64,000 nt of DNA from Thermoproteota archaeon (lineage in GTDB: Archaea > Thermoproteota > EX4484-205 > JAAOZP01): the NCBI GenBank assembly GCA_038848185.1, contig JAWCNV010000007.1, positions 9,378 to 73,377 of the forward strand. The letters run 5' to 3'. How positions within the stretch are numbered: position 1 is the stretch's first letter; each line of letters starts with the position of its first letter. The position numbers and the translations under genes were made by a program. The notes beneath the pieces were generated by a model that was not told the origin of the DNA, did not search any database, and saw only the letters and a program-made list of their open reading frames with translations. Below, piece by piece: positions 7,713-48,917 of this stretch.

Positions 7713-8531
7713 TTTTCCATGTTCAAACAAGGCTTGCTCCACGTAACCCATGTTTCTAGCGTATTCAACTATAGAGTCATACCCGAAATCTATTTCGCTT
7801 AAACTGTGAGCATCTGTGCCTAAGGTAATAGGGATCTTCATAGATGCACATGCTTCGAAAACTCTTCTTGTAGGATATGCTTCATTCACAGGGTTTCTTA
7901 ACCCTTTGCTGGAAACCTCAACCGCTATTTTAAGCTCGCTCACTTTCTCCAGCACGCTTAACTCCTCTTTCTTTAAAGAATCCGATGGCTTAAACCCCCA
8001 ATTCCTAGCGACATCGAAGTGTGCAATAATATTGAACAATCCTGTTTCAACAGCCCTTCCAAGAAGCCTGAGGTACTTAACGTAGAAACCGTCGAAACCC
8101 TCTTCCTTAACAGCTGTTTCAAACGCTTTTCTGAACTTGGTGCAGTCTAAGCAGAGTTCCCCTATCCAGTGCACGCTTCCCATCAGAAAGTCGAAATCAT
8201 AGCTTCCCAGTATGTCTCTAAGAATTTTCTCTGAACCCGGAAAATAGTCGACCTCTAGACCAGCTTTTAATCTTAAAACTGGAAACTGTTTTCCAACTTC
8301 CCTAACCTCAGACAAGTATTCTCCAAGCTTAGAAGGCTCAATAGAATAATACAGCTTCTTCATAGAGCCTGGCCTTACCGCCAAGTGCTCCGTGAAAGCT
8401 ATCTCGTTAAAATCCTTTCTAATGGCTTCCTGCACATAGTCCTTGATGGTCGCTTTGCCGTCGCTGTAAGTGCTGTGAATATGGTAGTTCACTTTAACCA
8501 TTCTTTCACAGGCATGCTTCGCCGCTTCCAA
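7692..8531 (-). CDS. PHP-domain phosphoesterase (HisJ-family histidinol-phosphatase-like)
   Basis: N-terminal NYHIHSTYSDG motif, the PHP metal-binding HxH. Later FTEH and GTDAH motifs. 279 aa. Convergent with the NUDIX gene, 21-nt overlap. Confidence 0.7.
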   Translation of the reverse strand: MEAAKHACERMVKVNYHIHSTYSDGKATIKDYVQEAIRKDFNEIAFTEHLAVRPGSMKKLYYSIEPSKLGEYLSEVREVGKQFPVLRLKAGLEVDYFPGSEKILRDILGSYDFDFLMGSVHWIGELCLDCTKFRKAFETAVKEEGFDGFYVKYLRLLGRAVETGLFNIIAHFDVARNWGFKPSDSLKKEELSVLEKVSELKIAVEVSSKGLRNPVNEAYPTRRVFEACASMKIPITLGTDAHSLSEIDFGYDSIVEYARNMGYVEQALFEHGKLFFASI

Positions 8532-8646
8532 TATTATTTAACGTTTTTCCCTCAGGGTCATCGTTGCTATTCAGAGTTATGCTTTGTTAGGAATACTCTT
8601 TTCCGAGCAATGTTTATAAACTGCTTATTTTTTAACCGGTCACAGT

Positions 8647-8790
8647 GGCGGTAGCAGGGGGAGCTGGGAAAACCGGCTGAGAGGATCCCTGATCGGGGTC
8701 GACCCCTTGAACCTGACCCGGGTAATACCGGCGTAGGGAATGCTACCTGATGCTCCTTCTTCTACCGCCCCGTGTAAAAAGGAGGTGAAA
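8647..8790 (+). promoter_or_regulatory. TPP (THI-box) riboswitch with putative SD-sequestering expression platform
   Basis: Aptamer core GGGGAGC..GCTGAGAGG (8677-8684)..CCCTTGAACCTGACCCGGGTAATACCGGCGTAGGGAA (8703-8740) matches the conserved THI-box blocks. P1 candidate GGTAGCA 8650-8656 / TGCTACC 8741-8747. CTCCTT 8753-8758 is complementary to SD AAGGAG 8779-8784. GGCGGTAG 8647-8654 is complementary to CTACCGCC 8762-8769. Confidence 0.8.
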
Positions 8791-8793
8791 AAG

Positions 8794-9819
8794 ATGAGAA
8801 TAGGTTGGAGAATAACAGCGGTAATAGTGGTTGTAGCATCCGCAATAGTAGCTTCAGTACTATACCTCTACTTGAGCCAGCCGAAGCTTGAGGGTACCCT
8901 GATCATTTATGGCCCGAGGGGCATAACTGGTCTTGCAACAGCCCTCGTAAACGCTTTTAAAAACAAGTATCCCGATGTAAACGTTACCTTCATAAGCTAC
9001 GGCATGGGTTCAATAGAGATAGCTAACAAGCTTATTCTGGAGAAGGATTCTCCTGTAGCTGACGTGATAATAGGGCTTCCAGAGTTCTATGCGAAGGTTG
9101 TGGTGGACGCGGGAGTTCTTGAACCATATAGGCCTCAAACCATTTCGCTGATACCTAGTGAAGAGATCTGGGATCCTTCCGGAACAGTGCTTCCTATGGA
9201 TAAGGGTTTTGTCGTCCTAACTTATAATAGCACAATAATTTCGAGACTAGGTCTTCCACCGCCTGAAACGCTTGACGACCTACTTAGACCAGAGTACAGA
9301 GGCCTAGTATTCTACCAAGATCCCACTTCAAGTGGAACCGGGTTATCATTCCTAGTATGGGTGCTTTCCGTTAAAGGTGTTGACGAAGGGTTCAACTTTC
9401 TAAAGCAGCTTGAGCAGAACGTTAAAACGCATCCCTCAGGATGGACAACATCCATAATAGCTTTGAAAAGTGGAGAGGTTGCAATAGGATCAATGTTTAA
9501 CACTGACGTAGGCTATGAGGAGACGCCTAACCTTACGAGTAGAGTTGTGGAAGGTTTTGTCTACAGGGAGGGTATAGCTCTGGTTAAGAACGCGAAGCAT
9601 CCTGAAATAGCTAAGAAGTTCATAGAGTTCGCTTTAAGCACTGAAGCACAGAACCTTGTTGCACCAGAAGGCTATATGTATCCTGTTAACCCCTTAGCAT
9701 CCGTAGAGTTATTCAGCTATGCGCCAATACCCTTTAACAAGGTAACTTTTAATAATGAACTCGCTGGAAACGTTGAACAGTGGCTTGAAAGGTGGAGGAG
9801 AGAGATAAAAACAGGATGA
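8794..9819 (+). CDS. ABC transporter substrate-binding protein (thiamine/iron(III) TbpA/FbpA-type), N-terminal membrane anchor
   Basis: Strong SD GGAGGTGA 8781-8788, then ATG 8794 (MRIGWRITAVIVVVASAIV = signal/anchor). Family-1 extracellular solute-binding fold. Directly downstream of the TPP riboswitch. The ORF-track start at 8740 lies inside the aptamer and is rejected. Confidence 0.8.
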   Translation: MRIGWRITAVIVVVASAIVASVLYLYLSQPKLEGTLIIYGPRGITGLATALVNAFKNKYPDVNVTFISYGMGSIEIANKLILEKDSPVADVIIGLPEFYAKVVVDAGVLEPYRPQTISLIPSEEIWDPSGTVLPMDKGFVVLTYNSTIISRLGLPPPETLDDLLRPEYRGLVFYQDPTSSGTGLSFLVWVLSVKGVDEGFNFLKQLEQNVKTHPSGWTTSIIALKSGEVAIGSMFNTDVGYEETPNLTSRVVEGFVYREGIALVKNAKHPEIAKKFIEFALSTEAQNLVAPEGYMYPVNPLASVELFSYAPIPFNKVTFNNELAGNVEQWLERWRREIKTG

Positions 9820-11432
9820 TCGATGTTAAAAGGCTTCTGGCCTTCACACCATTTCTTTTTTTCCTAATCTTCTTCTATATTCTGCCCTTGGTCTTTTTAA
9901 TCGGTAACGCTAGTTTAACAGATTTCTTAAGCGTCGTGGGCGACGAATATATTCATAGGCTACTCAATGGTACGCTTATTCAGGCTTTCCTATCCATGCT
10001 GTTAACTTTGCTTCTAGCTCTTCCAGTAGCCTTCTTCTTCGCAAGATACTCGTTTAAGGGTAAGAGAATGCTTGAATACGTTTTGCTAACAGTTTTTTTC
10101 GTCCCCGCGTTCACGATAGCTGAAGGCCTTATAGTTCTTCTGGGTGATAACGGTATTGTCAACATGTTTCTCTCCTCCCTGTTTGGAACAGGGGAACCAG
10201 TTATCAGGATCCTTTACTCAATGTGGGCGGTTGTGCTTGCACACGTGATATATTACGTTCCTCTTGCAGTCCTTATTCTTGAACAAGGCTTCTCCTCCGT
10301 CGACCAGGATCTCGTTGATGCTGCTAGGGTTTTCTCAGGATCAGGCCTAAGAACTTTTAAAGCAGCATATTTAAACACTTTAACCCCCTTCATTGTTGCC
10401 GCCTCACTCCTCGTATTCGCCTTCTCCTTCATAACCTACTCAACACCAATACTCGTAGGAGGAAGGTTTACAACTCTCGAGGTTGAGATATACGCTACTA
10501 AGTTCAGGCCAATATCCTCGTCGATAGCCATCATACAGCTATCGTTAACATTCCTAATCTCGATTATAATCATCCTGTTCAGAGAGAAACTCTTCACAAA
10601 GCCTTCTGCAGGTTATCCTGCTGAGGAACCTGTTTCCAGACTATTATCAAAGCCCTCAGGAGTGCTTCTGATTGCCTACGTTGCCATAATCTATATTTTT
10701 GAACTGACTCCTGTCGCAATGCCTGTTCTCAAGCCTTTTCTGGAGGCAGGTTATGACTCGCTTAGCCTTTTCAAGGATCTTTACAGCTTCAAATTTGGCT
10801 TCGGCCTTAGTTTCAACGACGTTTTTTTCCAAAGCTTGGCGATAGCAATCATTGTCTCAACGGTCTCCGTTTTTCTCTCCATAGTAATGGTCTGGTCCTC
10901 TAAGATTCTAGGGGGATTATTTGAAAGAACCATGAGTATCCTTATGGCTCTCCCCCTGACAATATCGCGGTCATCCCTCGCCCTCGGGATGCTTCTTTCC
11001 TATGGCTTCGGCGTCATCAAGCTGTATGGAAGCTGGGTTCTGATGGTTCTAGGCCAGTCTGCATTCATCATTCCTCTCGTAGTTAGAATTGTTGAAGCCT
11101 CTTGGAGCAGGGTGATTGAAGAATACCGTGAGGCTGCTGAGGTGCATGGTGCATCACTCTTCTTCAGGCTTATCAGAGTTGAGATTCCCTTGGTGCTGCC
11201 CACTTTATTAGCATCGTTCCTAATGGCGTTCTCCTCATCTTTAAGCGACTTCACCTTCTCAACTTTCTTCAGCACGCTCAACTTGATGACATTGCCGGTG
11301 GCGGTTAACATTCTCATAGATTCGAGAAGGCTTAGCTTGGCACTAGCCTTAACCTCGGTCATCACCATGCTCGTAATCATTGTGGAAACCCTTGGTTCAC
11401 AGCTCTCCAGAGAAAGATTAAGGGTGATATAG
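9792..11432 (+). CDS. ABC transporter permease, fused double-domain (ThiP/FbpB-type), about 12 TM
   Basis: 546 aa with two EAA-loop-like segments (DLVDAARVFSGSGL... and REAAEVHGASLFF...). Alternative start ATG 9816 overlaps the binding-protein TGA (ATGA). Confidence 0.8.
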   Translation: MEERDKNRMIDVKRLLAFTPFLFFLIFFYILPLVFLIGNASLTDFLSVVGDEYIHRLLNGTLIQAFLSMLLTLLLALPVAFFFARYSFKGKRMLEYVLLTVFFVPAFTIAEGLIVLLGDNGIVNMFLSSLFGTGEPVIRILYSMWAVVLAHVIYYVPLAVLILEQGFSSVDQDLVDAARVFSGSGLRTFKAAYLNTLTPFIVAASLLVFAFSFITYSTPILVGGRFTTLEVEIYATKFRPISSSIAIIQLSLTFLISIIIILFREKLFTKPSAGYPAEEPVSRLLSKPSGVLLIAYVAIIYIFELTPVAMPVLKPFLEAGYDSLSLFKDLYSFKFGFGLSFNDVFFQSLAIAIIVSTVSVFLSIVMVWSSKILGGLFERTMSILMALPLTISRSSLALGMLLSYGFGVIKLYGSWVLMVLGQSAFIIPLVVRIVEASWSRVIEEYREAAEVHGASLFFRLIRVEIPLVLPTLLASFLMAFSSSLSDFTFSTFFSTLNLMTLPVAVNILIDSRRLSLALALTSVITMLVIIVETLGSQLSRERLRVI

Positions 11433-12506
11433 ATGGAGCTTGAAGTCAAGGATCTCAGGAAAAGGTTTGAAAGCTTCGAAGCGTTGAAAGGCGTCAGCTT
11501 TAAGACACCATCTCGAAAAACCCTAGCCCTCCTAGGGCCGAGCGGATGCGGTAAGACAACCACTCTTAGAATAATCGCAGGTCTCCTGAAGCCGGATGAG
11601 GGTAAGATTCTTTTCGACGGAAGGGATGTGTCTAAGCTGCCTCCCAGAGAAAGAAACGTGGGAATGGTTTTCCAAAGCCCAGCGTTGTTCCCAAACCTCA
11701 CAGTATGGGAGAACATCGCGTTCCCTCTAGAAGCTAGGAATAAGAGTTTTGAAGAAACCAATAAGAGGGTTAGAGAAGTCGTGGAACTGGTGGAGCTTGC
11801 TGGGCTTGAAAAAAGGCGTCCGCACGAGTTGAGTAGGGGACAGCAGCAGAGAGTAGCGATAGGCAGGGCAATAGCATCAGAAGTTAGCATCCTGCTTCTA
11901 GACGAGCCTCTAACTGCTCTGGACACCAGTCTCAGAACAGAGATATCTGAAGTAATAAGGAATATTCAGAGGAACCTTGGTCTTACAATGGTCTATGTAA
12001 CGCACAACCAAGTTGAAGCGTTCACCATGGGGGATTTCATCGCCACCATGTTCGACGGCCTGATAGATTCCTACGCAGATGTTCAGACAATGTATTCAAA
12101 GCCCCCTACGGAAAAGACCGCGAGATTCCTAGGGTTCATTAACAGGCTGGAGGCTAAAGCAGAATACATGGGTTCAGATACGGTCAGGCTTGTTTCCTCA
12201 TGGGGAGAATTCAGGCTTAATTGGCATGGGCCTAAGCTGAGTGGAAAAGTGATTGTTCTCTTCAGGCCTGAAGACGCTTCGATTAGTCTTGATGAAAAAG
12301 GCCTGTTAGAAGGCGAGCTTTTAAACAGCGTTTTCACGGGTAGAAATGTAGTTACACGTGTTAAGACAAGCCAAGGCTTGTTTGAGTGTGCAGGAAACGA
12401 TTTTTCTCAATACAAAGCATTATCTGGAATGGTGGGTAGAAGAGTCATGGTTAAAATAGACTTGGAAAAATCTGCTTTGATACGAGTTAACAATTTAATG
12501 GACTGA
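11433..12506 (+). CDS. ABC transporter ATP-binding protein with C-terminal TOBE-like domain (FbpC/PotA-type)
   Basis: Walker A GPSGCGKTT, signature LSRGQQQRV (degenerate LSGGQ), Walker B LLLDEP, H-loop VTHNQ. C-terminal about 120-aa beta-rich extension. Confidence 0.85.
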   Translation: MELEVKDLRKRFESFEALKGVSFKTPSRKTLALLGPSGCGKTTTLRIIAGLLKPDEGKILFDGRDVSKLPPRERNVGMVFQSPALFPNLTVWENIAFPLEARNKSFEETNKRVREVVELVELAGLEKRRPHELSRGQQQRVAIGRAIASEVSILLLDEPLTALDTSLRTEISEVIRNIQRNLGLTMVYVTHNQVEAFTMGDFIATMFDGLIDSYADVQTMYSKPPTEKTARFLGFINRLEAKAEYMGSDTVRLVSSWGEFRLNWHGPKLSGKVIVLFRPEDASISLDEKGLLEGELLNSVFTGRNVVTRVKTSQGLFECAGNDFSQYKALSGMVGRRVMVKIDLEKSALIRVNNLMD

Positions 12507-14788: not shown

Positions 14789-16474
14789 ATGGGGCAGAGC
14801 TTGTCATCCGCCAAGTTGGAGAAAACAAGCCTGTTTAGAAAAACAGGCCGGAGGATTATTGTGCGGCTAGACAGGCTCTCCGAAAAAAAGGGGGCAGCAT
14901 ATTCAATTTATTTCGCTTCAATCATATTTTTCTTCGGAGTAATTCTACTCCCCTCCCTACTGGGGATCCTGCTTAAAATTGACATGGTTCGAGAAGTTTT
15001 GTCAAACCCAGAGATGCTTGAAAAATCAGTTTCAGCAATCTTCTCATCGATCATCATGGCCACCATAGTTTCTGCCGTAGATGTGATCTCCGGATTGCCG
15101 CTTGCCTGGATCATTGTTAAGAGAAGAAACCGTTGGATGACGCTAGTTGATTCCCTTGCAGACCTTCCGATGATAATACCGACAGTGATACTTGGATACT
15201 CGACGCTCCTACTCTGGTGTGAAGATGCACCTTTCTCGATAATCGGTTTCCCGAGTCTTTCACCAGGGTTCCTCACGGTTTTTCTTCTCCACTTCTCCTT
15301 CTCCTACCCTGTTGTTGTAAGGGTTCTTGTAGGTAAGCTGATGGAGATTGACGCTACTTATGAGATCGCGGCCAGAACACTTGGAGCATCCTCGTGTACC
15401 GCCACTAGGACAATAAGCCTCCCGATGCTTAAATCAGGCATCATCGCGTCTCTAATCCTATCATTTGCAAGATCTCTTTCCGAGACAGGGGCGACACTAA
15501 TGGTTGCAGGAAGCTTTGAAAACGGGCCGGTCTTCATAAAAAGATCTATAGACAATGGACTGGTTTCCCCAATGGTTTTCGTCAGCCTTATGCTAATAGT
15601 TTTCTCGATACTAATACTCTTAGGGTTAAGAGTGTTCGGCTTCAAATTGAAGATACCTTTCAGAAAAGCCTATAGGGTTGAGACTTTTTTAAGCAGGAAG
15701 CCAGTTACATATGTTAGAGACTTATCCACGTTAAGCATCTTTGTTCTTCTAGTTCTTCTTCCAGCGTCATACATGGTTATCGCTAGACTGCCTTTAATGC
15801 TGGAGTCAGGTATAATAGGGGAAATGTTTCTAGGCAGTGGCGTATGGGCAACATACTGGATCAGCGTCTGGGACTCGTATCTCATAGGTTTTCTAGCAAC
15901 CTTGATCAACATTCTGTTCAGCCTACCCATGGCCATAGTAATCGCTAGAAATAGGCTGGGAAAAAGTCTTTCAAAGCTTTTAGACGCGTTAAGCAACACC
16001 TCTATAATAATGCCTTCTGTCGCCCTCGGCGTATCTATAGGATTATTCTGGGGAGCCTCCGGAATACCGGACTTCCTCCTAGTGCTTCTGGCACACCTCT
16101 GTATAACATACCCCTACATGGTTGCGACGATGGTTTCAGCACTCGAAGATCTTCCGGTGGAGCTTGAGGAAGCAGGGAGGACTCTTGGAGGCACGCCTTT
16201 CACAGTCTTCAGGACAATCGTGCTTCCAGTAGCTAAATACTCCTTTCTCTCTGGAGCAATCCTAACCTTCACCAGAAGTGTAAACGAGACAGGAGCTACA
16301 CTAGCTGTTTCAAAAACCTTTAAAACAGTCTCAGTCTTGCTTGTCGAATGGGTTAAATCCCCTGCAATGAGAGTTGAATCAAGCATTGGTACATTAATAC
16401 TAATGTTTTTCTCAATAATTTTTCTCCTGGTTTTCCGATACTTCTACTCTAGGGGAGGCGGCTCGGTTGCCTAG
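14789..16474 (+). CDS. ABC transporter permease, fused double-domain (sulfate/molybdate/iron-thiamine superfamily), no cognate SBP nearby
   Basis: Two EAA-like segments (YEIAARTLGASS...SFARSLSETGATL and EEAGRTLGGTPF...FTRSVNETGATL). Probable true start GTG 14861, preceded by SD GGAGG 14850-14854 and a hairpin at 14829-14848. Confidence 0.75.
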   Translation: MGQSLSSAKLEKTSLFRKTGRRIIVRLDRLSEKKGAAYSIYFASIIFFFGVILLPSLLGILLKIDMVREVLSNPEMLEKSVSAIFSSIIMATIVSAVDVISGLPLAWIIVKRRNRWMTLVDSLADLPMIIPTVILGYSTLLLWCEDAPFSIIGFPSLSPGFLTVFLLHFSFSYPVVVRVLVGKLMEIDATYEIAARTLGASSCTATRTISLPMLKSGIIASLILSFARSLSETGATLMVAGSFENGPVFIKRSIDNGLVSPMVFVSLMLIVFSILILLGLRVFGFKLKIPFRKAYRVETFLSRKPVTYVRDLSTLSIFVLLVLLPASYMVIARLPLMLESGIIGEMFLGSGVWATYWISVWDSYLIGFLATLINILFSLPMAIVIARNRLGKSLSKLLDALSNTSIIMPSVALGVSIGLFWGASGIPDFLLVLLAHLCITYPYMVATMVSALEDLPVELEEAGRTLGGTPFTVFRTIVLPVAKYSFLSGAILTFTRSVNETGATLAVSKTFKTVSVLLVEWVKSPAMRVESSIGTLILMFFSIIFLLVFRYFYSRGGGSVA

Positions 16475-17561
16475 AGTGGTCTTGGAAAAAGTTTCGAAAA
16501 ATTTTGAAAGAGTGGCTGCACTGGATAATGTAAGCCTGTCTTTCGAAGACGGAGATTACAGCTGTATTCTAGGTCCAACTGGAAGCGGTAAGACAACTCT
16601 TCTTAAAGTCATAGCTGGCCTCGTGGAGCCGGATTCCGGCGAAGTGTATATAGACGGGAAAAATGTCACCGGAGCCCCGCCTGAAGCGAGGGGTGCAGTC
16701 TACATGCATCAACAGTATGCTCTGTTTCCACACCTGACTGTAAGCCAGAATATATCTTTCGGCCTCATTGCAAGAGGCGTGAACAGGAAGCTTATCGAGA
16801 AAAGGGTTTCAGAAGCTCTTGAAATAGTTAAGCTCAGTGAATGGAGTGACGCTTACCCAAGGGAGCTAAGCGGAGGAATGCAGCAGAGGGTTGCACTAGC
16901 CAGATGCCTAGCTACTGGAGCACAACTCCTTCTACTGGATGAGCCCTTGGGTGCGCTTGACGCTAGGCTTAGGCTAGAGGTTAGAGGCGAACTGGCAAGG
17001 ATAGTGGATGAGCTTAATCTGACTGTGATCCATGTTACTCACGACCAGTCTGAAGCCATGTCTCTTGCAGACAGGCTGATCCTCTTAAGGGATGGAAGAG
17101 TTGTTCAGACCGGTTCTCCTGAAGATGTTTATTTTAACCCGAACAGCGTTTTCTCAGCATACTTCGTCGGGGAAAGTGTTTTCCTAGAAGGAGTTGTTAC
17201 GAAGGCTGATGGAAGGCTTGTTTCAATAGAGCTTAGAAACGGCATGACTGTTGAAGCATTATCCGGTGATAATTTCAGCCAGGGCGAGCTGGCTGTAGCT
17301 GCCGTCAGATGCGAGGACATAATTGTTGGCGAAGGCCCTTTAATGGGTCTACTTAGAGAGGTAAACTTTCTCGGCAGCTTCTCCAAGCTGACCTTCGAGC
17401 TTCCCGGAGGCTTGAGGATATCGGTGAACATTCCTCTATCAAAGTTCATTAAAACAGACTTTAGAATCGGAATGGGTCTTCAGCTGACAATACCGAGAGA
17501 CAAGGTTCGCGTCTTCAAATATCCGTACATGGGGTTAGCAAAGGAGATTGAGGCGTTTTAA
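16467..17561 (+). CDS. ABC transporter ATP-binding protein 1 with TOBE-like C-terminal domain
   Basis: TTG start overlapping the permease stop. Walker A GPTGSGKTT, LSGGMQQRV, LLLDEP, VTHDQ. Confidence 0.85.
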   Translation: MPRVVLEKVSKNFERVAALDNVSLSFEDGDYSCILGPTGSGKTTLLKVIAGLVEPDSGEVYIDGKNVTGAPPEARGAVYMHQQYALFPHLTVSQNISFGLIARGVNRKLIEKRVSEALEIVKLSEWSDAYPRELSGGMQQRVALARCLATGAQLLLLDEPLGALDARLRLEVRGELARIVDELNLTVIHVTHDQSEAMSLADRLILLRDGRVVQTGSPEDVYFNPNSVFSAYFVGESVFLEGVVTKADGRLVSIELRNGMTVEALSGDNFSQGELAVAAVRCEDIIVGEGPLMGLLREVNFLGSFSKLTFELPGGLRISVNIPLSKFIKTDFRIGMGLQLTIPRDKVRVFKYPYMGLAKEIEAF

Positions 17562-17563
17562 AG

Positions 17564-18649
17564 ATGCCTAGTGTCAGAGTAGAGAACATTAAGAAAAAGT
17601 TCGGCGACTTCACTGCCCTTGAAGATGTTAAGATAAACGTGAATGATGGGGAATATGTTTCCATAATTGGCCCCTCAGGATGCGGCAAGACAACCCTGTT
17701 AAGGATAATTGCAGGCATAATAAGAGACTATGAAGGCCATGTCTACGTTGATGGCGAGCTTTTCGACGAGAAGCCGCTGGAGGAGAGGGGAATCGGATAC
17801 GTGTTTCAAAACATTGCGCTTTTTCCAAATATGAATATCGGTGGAAACGTGTCTTACAGCCCTAGGGCTAAAGGTCTTAACTCAACCACGATAAGAACAA
17901 TGACGCTGGAAATGCTTGAACTCATGAAGCTGACGGAACGCTACTACGATTATCCTGCGAGGCTGAGCGGAGGAATGCAGCAGAAAACAGCCCTAGCCAG
18001 AGCACTAGCTTCAGGAGCCCGGCTCCTACTCTTAGACGAGCCTCTTTCACTTCTAGACTTGAAGGTTAGAACTGAGCTGAGGTATGAGCTTAGACGTATT
18101 GTTAAGGATCTTGGCTTAACCGCAATCCATGTGACTCATGACCAAGAGGAAGCGATGGCGATCTCGGACAGGATTATAATTATGAGGAGGGCCCGCATCG
18201 TGGAAGACGGTACTCCGTTAAGCCTTTACCTTAGGCCTAAGAAGATTTTCACAGCCTATTTTCTAGGAGAGTCAAACGTTTTAGAGGGAGATGTTACTGA
18301 AGCTGATGAAGACTCGTTGACAGTAAACATTGGAGGAGTGTCAGTTAAGGCGAGGAACACTGGTTTTCAGGTGGGGGAGAAGGTCATCGTTATGGTTAGG
18401 CCTGAGCTTATTGAGCTTGGGGAGGAGGGTTTTGAGGGAAGGGTTTTGAAAAAACTGGTTGAAGGGTTTTTCAACAGGTTTACTCTAGATTTAAACGGTA
18501 TTAAGATTATTGTTAAACAACCATATTCAACGGCTTCAAACATAAGCGATGGTTCCATGGTTAGAGTAAGGCTGCCGGAGGAGCATGTATTAGTGTACAA
18601 GTATCCGAAGAGAGGCTTATATAGTGAGATTTCACTTTATCAGTATTAG
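17564..18649 (+). CDS. ABC transporter ATP-binding protein 2 with TOBE-like C-terminal domain
   Basis: Walker A GPSGCGKTT, LSGGMQQKT, LLLDEP, VTHDQ. Starts 3 nt after the preceding ATPase gene. Confidence 0.85.
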   Translation: MPSVRVENIKKKFGDFTALEDVKINVNDGEYVSIIGPSGCGKTTLLRIIAGIIRDYEGHVYVDGELFDEKPLEERGIGYVFQNIALFPNMNIGGNVSYSPRAKGLNSTTIRTMTLEMLELMKLTERYYDYPARLSGGMQQKTALARALASGARLLLLDEPLSLLDLKVRTELRYELRRIVKDLGLTAIHVTHDQEEAMAISDRIIIMRRARIVEDGTPLSLYLRPKKIFTAYFLGESNVLEGDVTEADEDSLTVNIGGVSVKARNTGFQVGEKVIVMVRPELIELGEEGFEGRVLKKLVEGFFNRFTLDLNGIKIIVKQPYSTASNISDGSMVRVRLPEEHVLVYKYPKRGLYSEISLYQY

Positions 18650-18651
18650 AA

Positions 18652-19338
18652 TTGGCGTCAAAGGACTTAGGAGAGTGGCTTAAGGACAGGAAGAAGCTGA
18701 AATCCTACGAGACACTGGTTTCTCATGCGGATAAGGTTTTCCAAGTTGTCGACGAGCTTTTGAATCTTGTGAGAGCATCGATGAATGCTCAAAGCTCTAA
18801 GGCAGACGCCATATACGTGAGACAAGAGCAGATGGAGAGGGATGCCGACTTCCTAAGAAGAAAGGTGATGGACGAGATTGCTAGAAGCGAGCTTCCACCA
18901 GATATGAAGAAGTATTTCATGGAGCTCTCTAGGGAGGTAGACATGGTTGCTGACTATGCTCACGGGGCAGGCAGAATACTGGCGTTTCTGCCTCTAAGCA
19001 ACCTTGGACAGGACATTAAGGATAAGATAGAGCAGATGTGCATAAAGACTAGGGAGTGCGCTTTAGATCTTAGAGATGCCTTATCGGCAATACTTTCAAG
19101 AGAGTACAGGAGAGCAGTTAATTTAAGCGACAAGGTTGAGGATGATGAGAAGGAGGTCGACAAGCTTTACGTGGAGGCACGGGGGCTTCTGTTAAGTGAC
19201 AAGTACTCCAATATGGATCCCAGAATGGTTATATTTCTCTCAGAGTTTTTCGAGGCGATAGAGGAAACCTCGGATAGGTGCGAGGACTCCATAGACTACT
19301 TTAGAGTTCTACTAGTTGAACTCACTAAGCCGAAGTGA
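18652..19338 (+). CDS. DUF47/PhoU-like helical protein (TIGR00153-type)
   Basis: TTG start 3 nt after the ATPase stop. All-helical 228 aa with paired PhoU-like repeats (D..R...D.ia..e.....e). Usually found next to Pit transporters, here next to an ABC system. Confidence 0.55.
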   Translation: MASKDLGEWLKDRKKLKSYETLVSHADKVFQVVDELLNLVRASMNAQSSKADAIYVRQEQMERDADFLRRKVMDEIARSELPPDMKKYFMELSREVDMVADYAHGAGRILAFLPLSNLGQDIKDKIEQMCIKTRECALDLRDALSAILSREYRRAVNLSDKVEDDEKEVDKLYVEARGLLLSDKYSNMDPRMVIFLSEFFEAIEETSDRCEDSIDYFRVLLVELTKPK

Positions 19339-46948: not shown

Positions 46949-47917
46949 ATGAAGAAAATGATTGTCCAAGCTGCATTAGTAGGAGGCTTCCCTAGGCCTT
47001 TCAACATTGGTAGGCTCATGAGTAGATATAGAGATGGCAAGCTCGCTCCGGAAACCTATGAGAAAAGGATTAGGACAGAGCTTCTTAAAACGATTAGGAG
47101 AATCGCTGATTCGAATGTTTCCATGATTCCTTTCAACATGTTTCTCTGGGACGATATTTTCGAGCCTTTCGCAGGCACCTTTGGAGGGATTGAGAGAGGA
47201 GGACTCTACCGATTTCTAGACAACAATTTCTATTATAGGGTTCCCTTGGTGAAAGGAAAGATACATCACAAAGAAGCAACAGTAACTCATTTCAAGATGA
47301 TTAAGAACATCGTCAGAGAAAGCAAGCGGCGTTTGAAGGTTAATGCAGTTATCCCCGGCCCATACACCTTTGTGAAAATGTGTGAGAACAAGTACTATCC
47401 TTCTGAAGAAGCACTTATAACTGATATTGCTGAGGCTCTGGGCGAAGAGGTGCGGCTGCTTGAGAAGCTTGGTGCAGGGTTTATCGAAGTCCATGAGCCC
47501 CTACTGGCTTCTGGAAAGGTTAGTATAGAACTCTTCGAGAAAGGGTTTGAAACATTGACTTCCAAAGTATCTTCGAAAATCTGGCTTCAAACATACTTCG
47601 GTCCAGTCAGTCAGCTTGAGGAACTATCAGGGTTGAAAATTGATGTGCTTGGAGTCGACTTAGTTGAAGCACCTAATCAGTTTGAAGCAATCTTGGGTTT
47701 AAGGGGTAAAATGGGAGTCGGTCTTGGCGCTGTAGATTCTAGGAGCACTAGAGTTGAAACCGTTAGAAGCCTGAGGATGCTTGTTAAGAGGGCTAGTGAA
47801 AACTTTAGCAGGGTCTATCTAACACCTAATGCGATGATGGATTTCATACCGGTTTCAATAGCATATGCTAAGATCAGGAGGATGGGCACAGCTGCAGGAG
47901 GTTTTAGAAATGGTTGA
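46949..47917 (+). CDS. MetE-like (cobalamin-independent methionine synthase family) protein, non-catalytic N-domain-like paralog
   Basis: UroD/MetE (beta/alpha)8 fold (IEVHEPLLA). Lacks the His/Cys/Glu/Cys zinc ligands. Confidence 0.6.
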   Translation: MKKMIVQAALVGGFPRPFNIGRLMSRYRDGKLAPETYEKRIRTELLKTIRRIADSNVSMIPFNMFLWDDIFEPFAGTFGGIERGGLYRFLDNNFYYRVPLVKGKIHHKEATVTHFKMIKNIVRESKRRLKVNAVIPGPYTFVKMCENKYYPSEEALITDIAEALGEEVRLLEKLGAGFIEVHEPLLASGKVSIELFEKGFETLTSKVSSKIWLQTYFGPVSQLEELSGLKIDVLGVDLVEAPNQFEAILGLRGKMGVGLGAVDSRSTRVETVRSLRMLVKRASENFSRVYLTPNAMMDFIPVSIAYAKIRRMGTAAGGFRNG

Positions 47918-48917
47918 GGTTAAGCTACCAGTCTTACCAACAACAGTCATCGGAAGCTACCCGAGGCCAATATGGCTCAGGAGAACTATTAAGCTCTGGA
48001 AATCCGGTAGGCTTGAGGACGAGCATATGAAGGAGGCTTTCAACGATGCCGTTGTAAGCGTTTTAAGAGATCAGGAGGCGGCAGGTATAGATATTCCGAG
48101 CGACGGGGAGCAGAGAAGGGATGAGATGGTGGAGTACTTTGCTGAGAGGATAGGAGGTTTCAAGTTCTATGACCCTATAAGAATATGGGGTAACGCCTAC
48201 TACAGGAAGCCAGCGGTCCACGCTCCTCTCCAGTATAAGGGGAACATGGTTGTAGAGGAATTCAGGTTCCTAAGGTCTGCTTCAACGAAGCCAGTTGTGA
48301 AGATAACTATAACTGGGCCATACACTATAGCTGACTGGAGTTTCAATGAGTATTACTCCACTAAGGAGGAGCTTACATTCGAAATTGCGAAAATAGTCAA
48401 CAGGGAGCTAAAAGCCTTGGAGGAGGCTGGAGCAATATATGTTCAGATAGACGAGCCTGCGTTGTCGACACATTTAGAGGAGGTAGAGTGGGCTGTTGAA
48501 GCGGTTAACGAGGCTGTGAGTGAAATGCGGATTAAAATAAGCATGCATGTGTGCTATGGAGACTACTCTAGGATCATCCCGTACTTGGAAAATGTTAAGG
48601 TGAGCCAGTTTGCCTTTGAGTTCGCGAACAGAGGCTTTAAGGATATAGAGGTTGTTAAGAAGATGCCTGAGGATAAGGAGCTTGGCTTCGGAGTTATAGA
48701 TGTTCACAATAGGAGGATTGAAACAGTTGAGGAAGTTGCCTCAGGAATAAGGAGGATGCTTCAACTACTTCCCGCCCACAGGCTATATATTAATCCTGAT
48801 TGCGGGTTGAAACTCCTACCTAGAGCAATAGCTAAGGATAAGATGAGGGTCATGGTTGAGGCTGTTAAGAAGATCAGGGAAGAGATTAAGGACGATGGCC
48901 CAGTAATCAGAACCTAA
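47910..48917 (+). CDS. metE: Cobalamin-independent methionine synthase, archaeal short form (catalytic domain)
   Basis: ATG 47910 after SD GGAGGT, 8-nt overlap with the upstream gene. VIGSYPRP, IQIDEPAL, zinc ligands MHVCYG and DCGLK. Confidence 0.8.
   Translation: MVEVKLPVLPTTVIGSYPRPIWLRRTIKLWKSGRLEDEHMKEAFNDAVVSVLRDQEAAGIDIPSDGEQRRDEMVEYFAERIGGFKFYDPIRIWGNAYYRKPAVHAPLQYKGNMVVEEFRFLRSASTKPVVKITITGPYTIADWSFNEYYSTKEELTFEIAKIVNRELKALEEAGAIYVQIDEPALSTHLEEVEWAVEAVNEAVSEMRIKISMHVCYGDYSRIIPYLENVKVSQFAFEFANRGFKDIEVVKKMPEDKELGFGVIDVHNRRIETVEEVASGIRRMLQLLPAHRLYINPDCGLKLLPRAIAKDKMRVMVEAVKKIREEIKDDGPVIRT

Follow-up and report, generated by a model that had tools for sequence, protein, structure and literature searches.

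The window analysed here, a 64 kb stretch (64,000 nucleotides) of contig JAWCNV010000007.1 from a Thermoproteota archaeon, carries a thiamine pyrophosphate (TPP) riboswitch aptamer on its + strand, 37 nt upstream of the gene for the substrate-binding protein (SBP) of an ATP-binding cassette (ABC) uptake operon. All positions given below are counted from the first nucleotide of the window. The data make it very probable that this is a native TPP riboswitch of a Brockarchaeota-like archaeon (TACK, i.e. Thaumarchaeota, Aigarchaeota, Crenarchaeota and Korarchaeota; Thermoproteota), and that it acts as a translational OFF switch of the operon in the manner of the Escherichia coli thiM leader.

When the whole window was compared with Rfam 15 using cmscan, a single match reached a gathering score. 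This was to RF00059, the TPP riboswitch family, at 8647-8757 (+), with 75.4 bits and an E value of 4.9e-13. The gathering score of the family is 54.3 bits, 21 bits below that of the window aptamer, and the match spans the full model (1-105 of 105) with agreement at every conserved position. No second TPP element was found elsewhere in the window by this search. A first-pass annotation, made from the sequence letters, had proposed a canonical TPP element at this site from its conserved blocks and a 7-bp P1 helix. All of the blocks and both strands of P1 were located where it had placed them, and the Rfam score bears the assignment out. The parts of the aptamer are as follows.

8647-8757, + strand: TPP aptamer (RF00059), assigned from the covariance-model score, the helix map and covariation
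8658-8664, + strand: GGGGAGC block
8676-8684, + strand: GCTGAGAGG block
8704-8740, + strand: CCCTTGAACCTGACCCGGGTAATACCGGCGTAGGGAA block
8650-8656 (GGTAGCA) with 8741-8747 (TGCTACC), + strand: helix P1, from the helix map
8657-8660 with 8703-8706 and 8663-8667 with 8673-8677, + strand: helix P2, from the helix map
8684-8689 with 8695-8700, + strand: helix P3, from the helix map
8712-8715 with 8734-8737, + strand: helix P4, from the helix map
8718-8721 with 8728-8731, + strand: helix P5, from the helix map

Folded alone, the aptamer core gave the expected three-way junction with a minimum free energy (MFE) of -47.6 kcal/mol (z = -2.69 against dinucleotide shuffles). Its G+C content is 0.62-0.63, compared with a window average of about 0.44. 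The ligand-contacting blocks CUGAGA, ACCUGA and CGNAGGGA are all present in the window. As judged from its sequence, the element is confirmed as a genuine canonical member of RF00059, far beyond chance.

In order to compare this leader with those of relatives, 137 related loci (designated by L numbers) were fetched from an alignment of the archaeal SBP clade. At the Rfam gathering score an aptamer lies directly upstream of the orthologous SBP gene in 35 further archaeal loci, which is the outcome that the first-pass annotation had tied to a genuine element. Together with the window these give 36 aptamer sequences, of which 23 are distinct, and in all 23 the ligand-contacting blocks are invariant. 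Structure was tested on a model-fitted alignment of the 23 distinct sequences, in which 89.8% of the cells are paired, compared with 79.6% in shuffles and 32-54% when the partners are slid. The compensatory changes that the first-pass annotation had pointed to in orthologous leaders are present: both sides have changed in 15 of the 30 base pairs, and the score for covariation, 0.303, is reached by none of 500 shuffles (0.136 ± 0.011) and compares with 0.05-0.10 for slid partners. Compensatory changes were found in P2, P3 and P5. Because a model-fitted alignment is biased towards the structure, RNAalifold was also run on a plain, unfitted MAFFT alignment, from which P2, P3 and P4/P5 were recovered independently, with 7 of 21 pairs compensatory. 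In an alignment-free check P1 was 7-8 bp long in the clade of the window, and its innermost A-U pair is swapped to U-A in relatives.

The region between the aptamer and the SBP start codon contains the elements of a putative expression platform.

8647-8664, + strand: 5' switching strand GGCGGTAGCAGGGGGAGC, comprising the 5' strands of P1 and P2 (candidate anti-anti-SD), assigned from complementarity
8752-8769, + strand: anti-aptamer 18-mer GCTCCTTCTTCTACCGCC, assigned from complementarity and conservation
8753-8758, + strand: anti-SD CTCCTT, inside the 18-mer and able to pair with AAGGAG at 8779-8784
8779-8787, + strand: Shine-Dalgarno sequence (SD) AAGGAGGTG (AAGGAG at 8779-8784), of which GGAGGTG ends 6 nt before the ATG

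The first-pass annotation had described two pairings here, one between CTCCTT and AAGGAG ahead of the ATG at 8794, and another between GGCGGTAG (8647-8654) and CTACCGCC (8762-8769), and had taken them together as a translational ON/OFF platform. Both are present, as is the ATG, and the second can now be refined, in that it forms the end of one 18-nt helix. Indeed, 8647-8664 and 8752-8769 are complementary at 17 of 18 positions, with two G.U pairs and one C.U mismatch (8655/8761), and the two pairings of the earlier description correspond to the two ends of this single anti-aptamer helix. The computed energy of the duplex is -30.9 kcal/mol, compared with -15.6 ± 3.0 kcal/mol for composition-matched shuffled linkers, none of 2000 being as good. 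The changes that separate close relatives spare the switching strands and the SD: in nine distinct close relatives the 5' strand, with its GGCGGTAGC segment, and the SD (AAAGGAGGTG) are invariant, the 18-mer is invariant bar one T>C at the unpaired mismatch position, and the spacers between them vary freely.

Next, the ligand-bound (holo) and ligand-free (apo) states were drawn explicitly by hand and scored in the energy model. The holo state (P1-P5 plus CUCCUU:AAGGAG) scores -49.5, -30.9 and -15.5 kcal/mol at 37, 55 and 70 °C, respectively, and the apo state (18-nt helix plus P3-P5) scores -50.5, -33.4 and -19.2 kcal/mol at the same temperatures. The two modelled states are nearly isoenergetic, and the energy of ligand binding could plausibly tip the gap. 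In an ensemble calculation, opening the SD (AGGAGGU) became more costly when the aptamer was enforced: the cost was 8.45 instead of 2.17 kcal/mol at 37 °C and 4.40 instead of 0.49 kcal/mol at 65 °C, a rise of 3.9 kcal/mol at the higher temperature. With shuffled linkers the change was 0.29 ± 0.80 kcal/mol, and none of 120 reached the 6.28 kcal/mol of the window; the same control had the same outcome for L001 and for L009, the latter having a platform of different sequence. The change is positive in 20 of 21 leaders, where the values for distant subclades are unreliable (P1 is poorly mapped by the alignment and the holo penalties are 9-27 kcal/mol) and only those of L009 and L012, for which shuffles were run, are relied on. 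In the models the anti-SD would thus pair exclusively with either the SD or the aptamer strand, as in a thiM-type platform. The mutually exclusive pairings of the first-pass annotation hold in silico, as judged from the energies, accessibility, shuffles and conservation.

A real aptamer could instead act on transcription or on the fate of the mRNA, through premature termination, cleavage of the aCPSF1/FttA type or mRNA stability, and not by occluding the SD. Many bacterial TPP riboswitches are transcriptional, riboswitch mechanisms in Archaea are almost unstudied, the only natural one studied by experiment being the Thermococcus fluoride switch (PMC8241225), and the pyrimidine-rich tract at 8753-8763 in the window is U-rich. 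However, no run of five or more T residues and no hairpin with a T-tail occurs in 8748-8793, no terminator-like hairpin or T-run lies between the aptamer and the ATG, and no terminator-like site was detected in 8450-8950. Moreover, the conserved elements are exactly the anti-SD and the SD, and accessibility switches specifically in the real sequence. Action at the level of transcription or mRNA fate is therefore considered unlikely; the switching of SD accessibility, the conservation and the lack of a terminator together best support a thiM-like translational OFF switch.

Upstream of the aptamer lie the elements of a candidate archaeal promoter.

8606-8612, + strand: purine-rich heptamer agcaatg, resembling a transcription factor B recognition element (BRE), directly 5' of the TATA box
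8613-8620, + strand: TATA box TTTATAAA, assigned from conservation at a fixed distance
8641-8647, + strand: predicted transcription start region, from the usual archaeal spacing

In all 23 distinct leaders a TATA-like box keeps a fixed spacing, lying 42-45 nt 5' of the GGGGWGC block in the clade of the window and 32-36 nt in other clades. This difference of about 10 nt matches the extra 5' extension (GGCGG...) of the window's clade. The box is invariant in nine close relatives, and the spacer 3' of it varies freely. These features suggest that 8606-8620 would function as an archaeal-type promoter. Archaeal transcription usually begins some 30 nt downstream of the first base of the TATA box. 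Applied here, this spacing would put the start at about 8641-8647, which coincides with or barely precedes the beginning of the 5' switching strand, and the mRNA would then begin with the riboswitch. Bacterial-type signals were also sought on the + strand, and neither a sigma-70-like promoter nor an intrinsic terminator was found.

Building on the family membership, conservation, covariation, complementarity and in-silico switching shown above, we infer a mechanism of the following kind, in which binding of TPP, the way and extent to which expression is regulated in vivo, the transcription start and the substrate would all be as proposed here. The TATA/BRE promoter (8606-8620) would start the mRNA at about 8641-8647, giving a transcript that opens with the riboswitch. 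At low TPP, its first 18 nt (8647-8664) would pair with the 18-mer at 8752-8769 and break the aptamer. The anti-SD CUCCUU would then be locked in the long helix, the SD at 8779-8787 would be free and the SBP-permease-ATPase operon would be translated, with the internal genes served by tight coupling (an ATGA overlap and adjoining stop and start codons). With TPP bound, P1 and P2 would form and the 18-mer would be released, allowing CUCCUU to pair with AAGGAG of the SD and block initiation at the ATG at 8794.

Several points weigh against this model. The unconstrained MFE structure at 37 °C (-59.1 kcal/mol) lies below both hand-drawn states and does not contain the simple 6-bp SD:anti-SD helix, and the MFE structure at 60-75 °C retains P2 and P3, with no more than the outer 8 bp of the alternative helix formed. 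For L060 at 37 °C the computed effect on the SD is about zero (0.02), and for L015 it is negative. In an alignment-free search P1 was short or weak, at 3-6 bp, in distant subclades, and for this reason the logic of the platform is well supported only for the clade of the window plus L009. A true transcription start 3' of 8651 would shorten the alternative helix. Finally, the model assumes that translation initiation in this lineage would depend on the SD.

The host and the relatives of the operon bear on where the riboswitch came from. The SBP has its closest homologues, at 83-94% identity, in metagenomes and in metagenome-assembled genomes (MAGs) labelled Candidatus Brockarchaeota or Thermoproteota archaeon, and the former are placed in the Thermoproteati (TACK) in the NCBI taxonomy. 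The neighbourhood is syntenic with Brockarchaeota/Thermoproteota MAGs at about 70-90% amino-acid identity over genes for a rubrerythrin-like protein, NUDIX and PHP proteins, the SBP, permease and ATPase, Trm5b and an AEC transporter. A divergent gene for a PHP-family phosphatase lies upstream of the operon, and a convergent gene for a Trm5b-type tRNA methyltransferase downstream of it. This synteny, the nearby Trm5b gene and the TATA box at the right distance agree with the TACK-like archaeal origin claimed in the first-pass annotation.

The element might nevertheless be neither native nor functional, the contig being a bacterial contaminant or the aptamer a decaying relic of a horizontally acquired bacterial cassette. 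The same SBP family does carry TPP aptamers in bacteria, at not fewer than three loci, with homologues in Pseudothermotoga, Thermotogae and Treponema, and sister archaeal orthologues (L010, L013, L016 and L069-L071) are without the element. Against this, the Trm5b gene and the genes syntenic with several independent Brockarchaeota/Thermoproteota MAGs are on the same contig, the candidate promoter has a TATA box and the + strand shows nothing resembling a sigma-70 site, and the compensatory changes among 23 distinct sequences, all with unchanged ligand-contacting blocks, are the opposite of decay. The evidence from host, promoter and conservation largely refutes such an origin, to which we give next to no credence.

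The MAGs with an aptamer at the orthologous locus, among which SBP identity falls to about 54%, include some labelled Brockarchaeota, Thermoproteota, Nitrososphaerota and Bathyarchaeia. No aptamer was found, either at the gathering score or with a clade-specific covariance model at E <= 1, in L010, L013, L016 and L069-L071 (63-65% SBP identity), in L082, L084 and L085, or in any of the Pyrobaculum-type, Thermococci-type and Thermoplasmata homologues. The clade-specific model was likewise used at that threshold to look for degenerate aptamers at orthologous loci lacking an Rfam match, and none was found; L116 matched the model but, falling with Pseudothermotoga, was set aside as bacterial. In a rough neighbour-joining tree (no bootstrap) the L010/L016/L069 group is nested in the aptamer-bearing archaeal clade, with Bathyarchaeia-like aptamer-bearers outside both. 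This nesting suggests that the L010/L016/L069 subclade may have lost the aptamer secondarily. In this subclade (L010:4290-4690, L013:1970-2372, L016:4600-4940 and L069-L071), one member of which is labelled Brockarchaeota, the leader is AT-rich and the operons adjoin a divergently transcribed gene of about 500 aa.

The Bathyarchaeia-like loci (L014:4839-4988, L015:4790-4934 and L078:2812-2961; also L077, L079, L080 and L081) have an SD-containing hairpin 3' of the aptamer, for example CCCACCTC-cta-GAGGTGGG, in which L014 has G in place of A and the pair is preserved as G.U. The hairpin is followed by an upstream open reading frame (ORF) of 29-34 codons whose stop lies 0-4 nt before the SBP ATG. 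The peptides of these ORFs are not conserved, which suggests a coupling upstream ORF and not a small protein, and in these loci the riboswitch may control such an ORF. Taking the relatives together, TPP riboswitches may be ancestral to this uptake operon and vertically kept across broad Thermoproteota (Brockarchaeota, Bathyarchaeia-labelled and related MAGs), archaeally adapted (TATA/BRE abutting P1, SD-occlusion platforms diverged by subclade, and the upstream-ORF variant) and lost in one subclade, as opposed to being sporadic imports. This is offered tentatively, as a possibility that we rate somewhat below an even chance.

The operon downstream of the aptamer consists of three genes.

8794-9819, + strand: SBP of the TbpA/AfuA/P5PA type, 341 aa, with an N-terminal membrane anchor, assigned from NCBIfam and Pfam
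9816-11432 (alternative GTG start at 9792), + strand: fused double permease with two BPD_transp_1 domains, assigned from Pfam
11433-12506, + strand: ABC ATPase, 357 aa, PotA/PhnT2-like with a C-terminal extension, assigned from NCBIfam and Pfam models

The SBP and permease genes share an ATGA, in which the permease start at 9816 overlaps the stop codon of the SBP, and there is no gap between the permease stop codon and the ATPase ATG. SD-type sites are also present ahead of the internal genes, that of the ATPase being GGGTGAT at 11422-11428. A longer SBP reading frame, starting at an in-frame ATG at 8740 inside the aptamer and 18 codons longer, appears in the mechanical ORF list and was rejected. 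The extension frame is closed in L008, L001, L005 and L060, and only some of the relatives have it open. Because of these four closed frames and the conservation of the SD and ATG at 8794, we prefer the start at 8794; the extension from 8740 is probably not translated.

The SBP passes the NCBIfam model TIGR01254 for the thiamine ABC transporter SBP subfamily (133.1 bits against a cutoff of 93.4) and has Pfam matches to SBP_bac_6/1/8/11. The aptamer accordingly lies in the 5' leader, and on the same strand, of a gene assigned to thiamine transport. The equivalog models give a different result. The SBP scores 71.8 bits against the ThiB cutoff of 317 (TIGR01276), the permease 55-92 bits against ThiP cutoffs of 395-984 (for example, about 92 against 679), and the ATPase about 146 bits against ThiQ cutoffs of 245-298, its best matches being the PhnT2 and PotA types, also below cutoff. 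The ThiP-like fused double permease proposed in the first-pass annotation stands as to its architecture, with two BPD_transp_1 domains and an end-to-end alignment with the ThiP and PhnU2 models, but it falls far below the ThiP cutoffs, and the best match, PhnU2, is itself under its cutoff. The operon would thus resemble ThiBPQ in its workings and is not an equivalog.

Ranked by similarity, the solved relatives of the SBP are P5PA (6wce, pyridoxal phosphate (PLP)-binding, E 3.9e-24), 8x1a (annotated as Fe(III)), 4r72 and TbpA (2qry, E 1e-19). Of these, 4r72 was deposited as an ABC-type Fe3+ transport component; we take it to be AfuA, a sugar-phosphate binder. The ligand of the SBP can therefore not be read from homology at the sequence level, nor would a fold match to TbpA, P5PA or AfuA tell the ligands apart. 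The assignment to thiamine draws on the TIGR01254 match and on the fact that, in Archaea as well as Bacteria, genes of this SBP family are repeatedly found with TPP aptamers. The most likely substrate of the operon is thiamine itself, phosphorylated thiamine (thiamine monophosphate (TMP) or TPP) or a precursor. The earlier designation as an importer of thiamine or hydroxymethylpyrimidine (HMP) is hence reasonable, since the SBP passes TIGR01254, but falls short of proof, as relatives of the P5PA, AfuA and Fe types are closer than TbpA. No thiamine biosynthesis gene was found elsewhere in the window.

These relationships also raise the question of whether the aptamer would respond to a ligand other than TPP, such as thiamine, TMP or a precursor, e.g. 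HMP pyrophosphate (HMP-PP), or act as an ON switch. The nearest solved relatives of the SBP bind PLP, sugar phosphates or iron and not thiamine, and a covariance-model score cannot reveal ligand specificity. However, the conserved RF00059 blocks for sensing pyrimidine and pyrophosphate are all intact and without variation, and the HMP-PP (thiS) riboswitch is a different and much smaller motif. As for an ON switch, closing of the aptamer is computed to occlude the SD, and importers are usually controlled by OFF logic. Both departures from a TPP-responsive OFF switch are considered very unlikely.

Among known systems, the closest likeness is to the E. coli thiM-type RF00059 element. The two share the P1-P5 three-way junction, the CUGAGA/ACCUGA/CGNAGGGA blocks and the logic by which an anti-SD pairs with either the SD or an anti-anti-SD from the aptamer's own 5' strands. 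The window element differs in its archaeal TATA/BRE promoter, in a transcription start that apparently falls at the first nucleotide of the switch, in an unusually long (18 nt) and G+C-rich alternative helix, as would be expected for a thermophile, and in its host, a TACK archaeon. The operon shares with E. coli ThiBPQ (TbpA/ThiP/ThiQ) the order of SBP, fused two-domain permease and ATPase; it differs in failing all three equivalog cutoffs, in an ATPase of the longer PotA/PhnT2 type and in an SBP that is as close to P5PA (6wce) and AfuA as to TbpA (2qry).

Riboswitches are rare in Archaea, and to our knowledge archaeal TPP elements have been assigned essentially to Thermoplasmata. Rodionov and colleagues are said to have dealt with the TPP riboswitches of the Thermoplasmata or Thermoplasmatales in 2002 and 2017, and in the later study archaeal TPP riboswitches were reportedly restricted to the Thermoplasmatales, with ThiR regulating thiamine genes elsewhere. 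The Thermoplasmata elements, which are said to lie upstream of thiamine transport or biosynthesis genes, share with the window an archaeal host and the aptamer class, and differ in phylum (Euryarchaeota-type as opposed to Brockarchaeota/Bathyarchaeia). The one Thermoplasmata SBP homologue retrieved here (L034) has no aptamer. In Thermococci and Crenarchaeota ThiR systems perform the same task, feedback control of thiamine uptake, but ThiR is a protein transcription factor, whereas the control in the window would be exerted by a cis-acting RNA. ThiR PF0601 and ThiR-regulated thiamin transport are mentioned for Pyrococcus (PMC10746257). The only experimentally determined natural archaeal riboswitch is the fluoride switch of Thermococcus (PMC8241225). 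Like the window element, that of Thermococcus kodakarensis is a natural switch in an archaeal mRNA leader, presumed to be translational (PMC8241225), but the two differ in ligand and aptamer class, and the Thermococcus switch turns an exporter ON and was tested experimentally, whereas the window switch is known in silico.

McCown et al. (2017) counted 79 riboswitches in Euryarchaeota, 6 in Crenarchaeota, 1 in Korarchaeota and 1 in Thaumarchaeota, with TPP and fluoride as the commonest classes and the class of those in the TACK phyla unspecified (PMC5473149). The extended distribution suggested in the first-pass annotation is thus real, being seen at 35 further archaeal loci, but modest, given that a few TACK riboswitches had already been counted. 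A search of the available literature returned no riboswitch link with Brockarchaeota (one incidental reference-list mention) or with Bathyarchaeia. Annotation pipelines that run Rfam may already flag these elements.

Other features were observed in the window and the related loci. A second ABC system at 14789-19338 (+) comprises a fused double permease (Mo/W/sulfate-like), two tandem ABC ATPase genes and a PhoU_div (DUF47) protein, with no adjoining SBP gene and no RNA element detected upstream. At 46949-48917 two adjoining genes for proteins resembling cobalamin-independent methionine synthase (Meth_synt_1/2) lie beside an MTHFR-like gene; with the nearby SHMT and ThyX genes they form a small one-carbon/methionine cluster. 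ARAGORN detected no tRNA genes in the window. In L014:2121-2225 and L077:121-225 a tRNA match (RF00005, 39.5 bits) is 105 nt long against a 71-position model and presumably contains an intron, as archaeal tRNAs often do. CRISPR arrays with RF01319 (CRISPR-DR6) repeats lie about 0.5 kb downstream of Thermococci SBP homologues (L026:6420-7190; also L023 and L027).

Overall, the aptamer and the logic of the switch are textbook and no concept is changed; what is new is a modest phyletic extension and a clean, testable archaeal platform. A mostly bacterial control device is extended to an archaeal branch where it is barely documented, with a canonical TPP switch in an archaeal promoter context in Brockarchaeota-like and Bathyarchaeia-like genomes (this locus and 35 relatives). 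From the side of regulation, the presence of the riboswitch argues for a thiamine-related annotation of an ambiguous ABC transporter family, and the same operon occurs with an RNA switch in some archaeal lineages and without one in Pyrobaculum, Thermococci and one Brockarchaeota-labelled subclade. The expression platform, consisting of an 18-nt anti-aptamer strand, an anti-SD and an SD, is simple enough for a direct test. If TPP riboswitches are indeed ancestral to this operon, this would be the first natural platform of a translational riboswitch in TACK archaea that is clean and can be tested by mutation.

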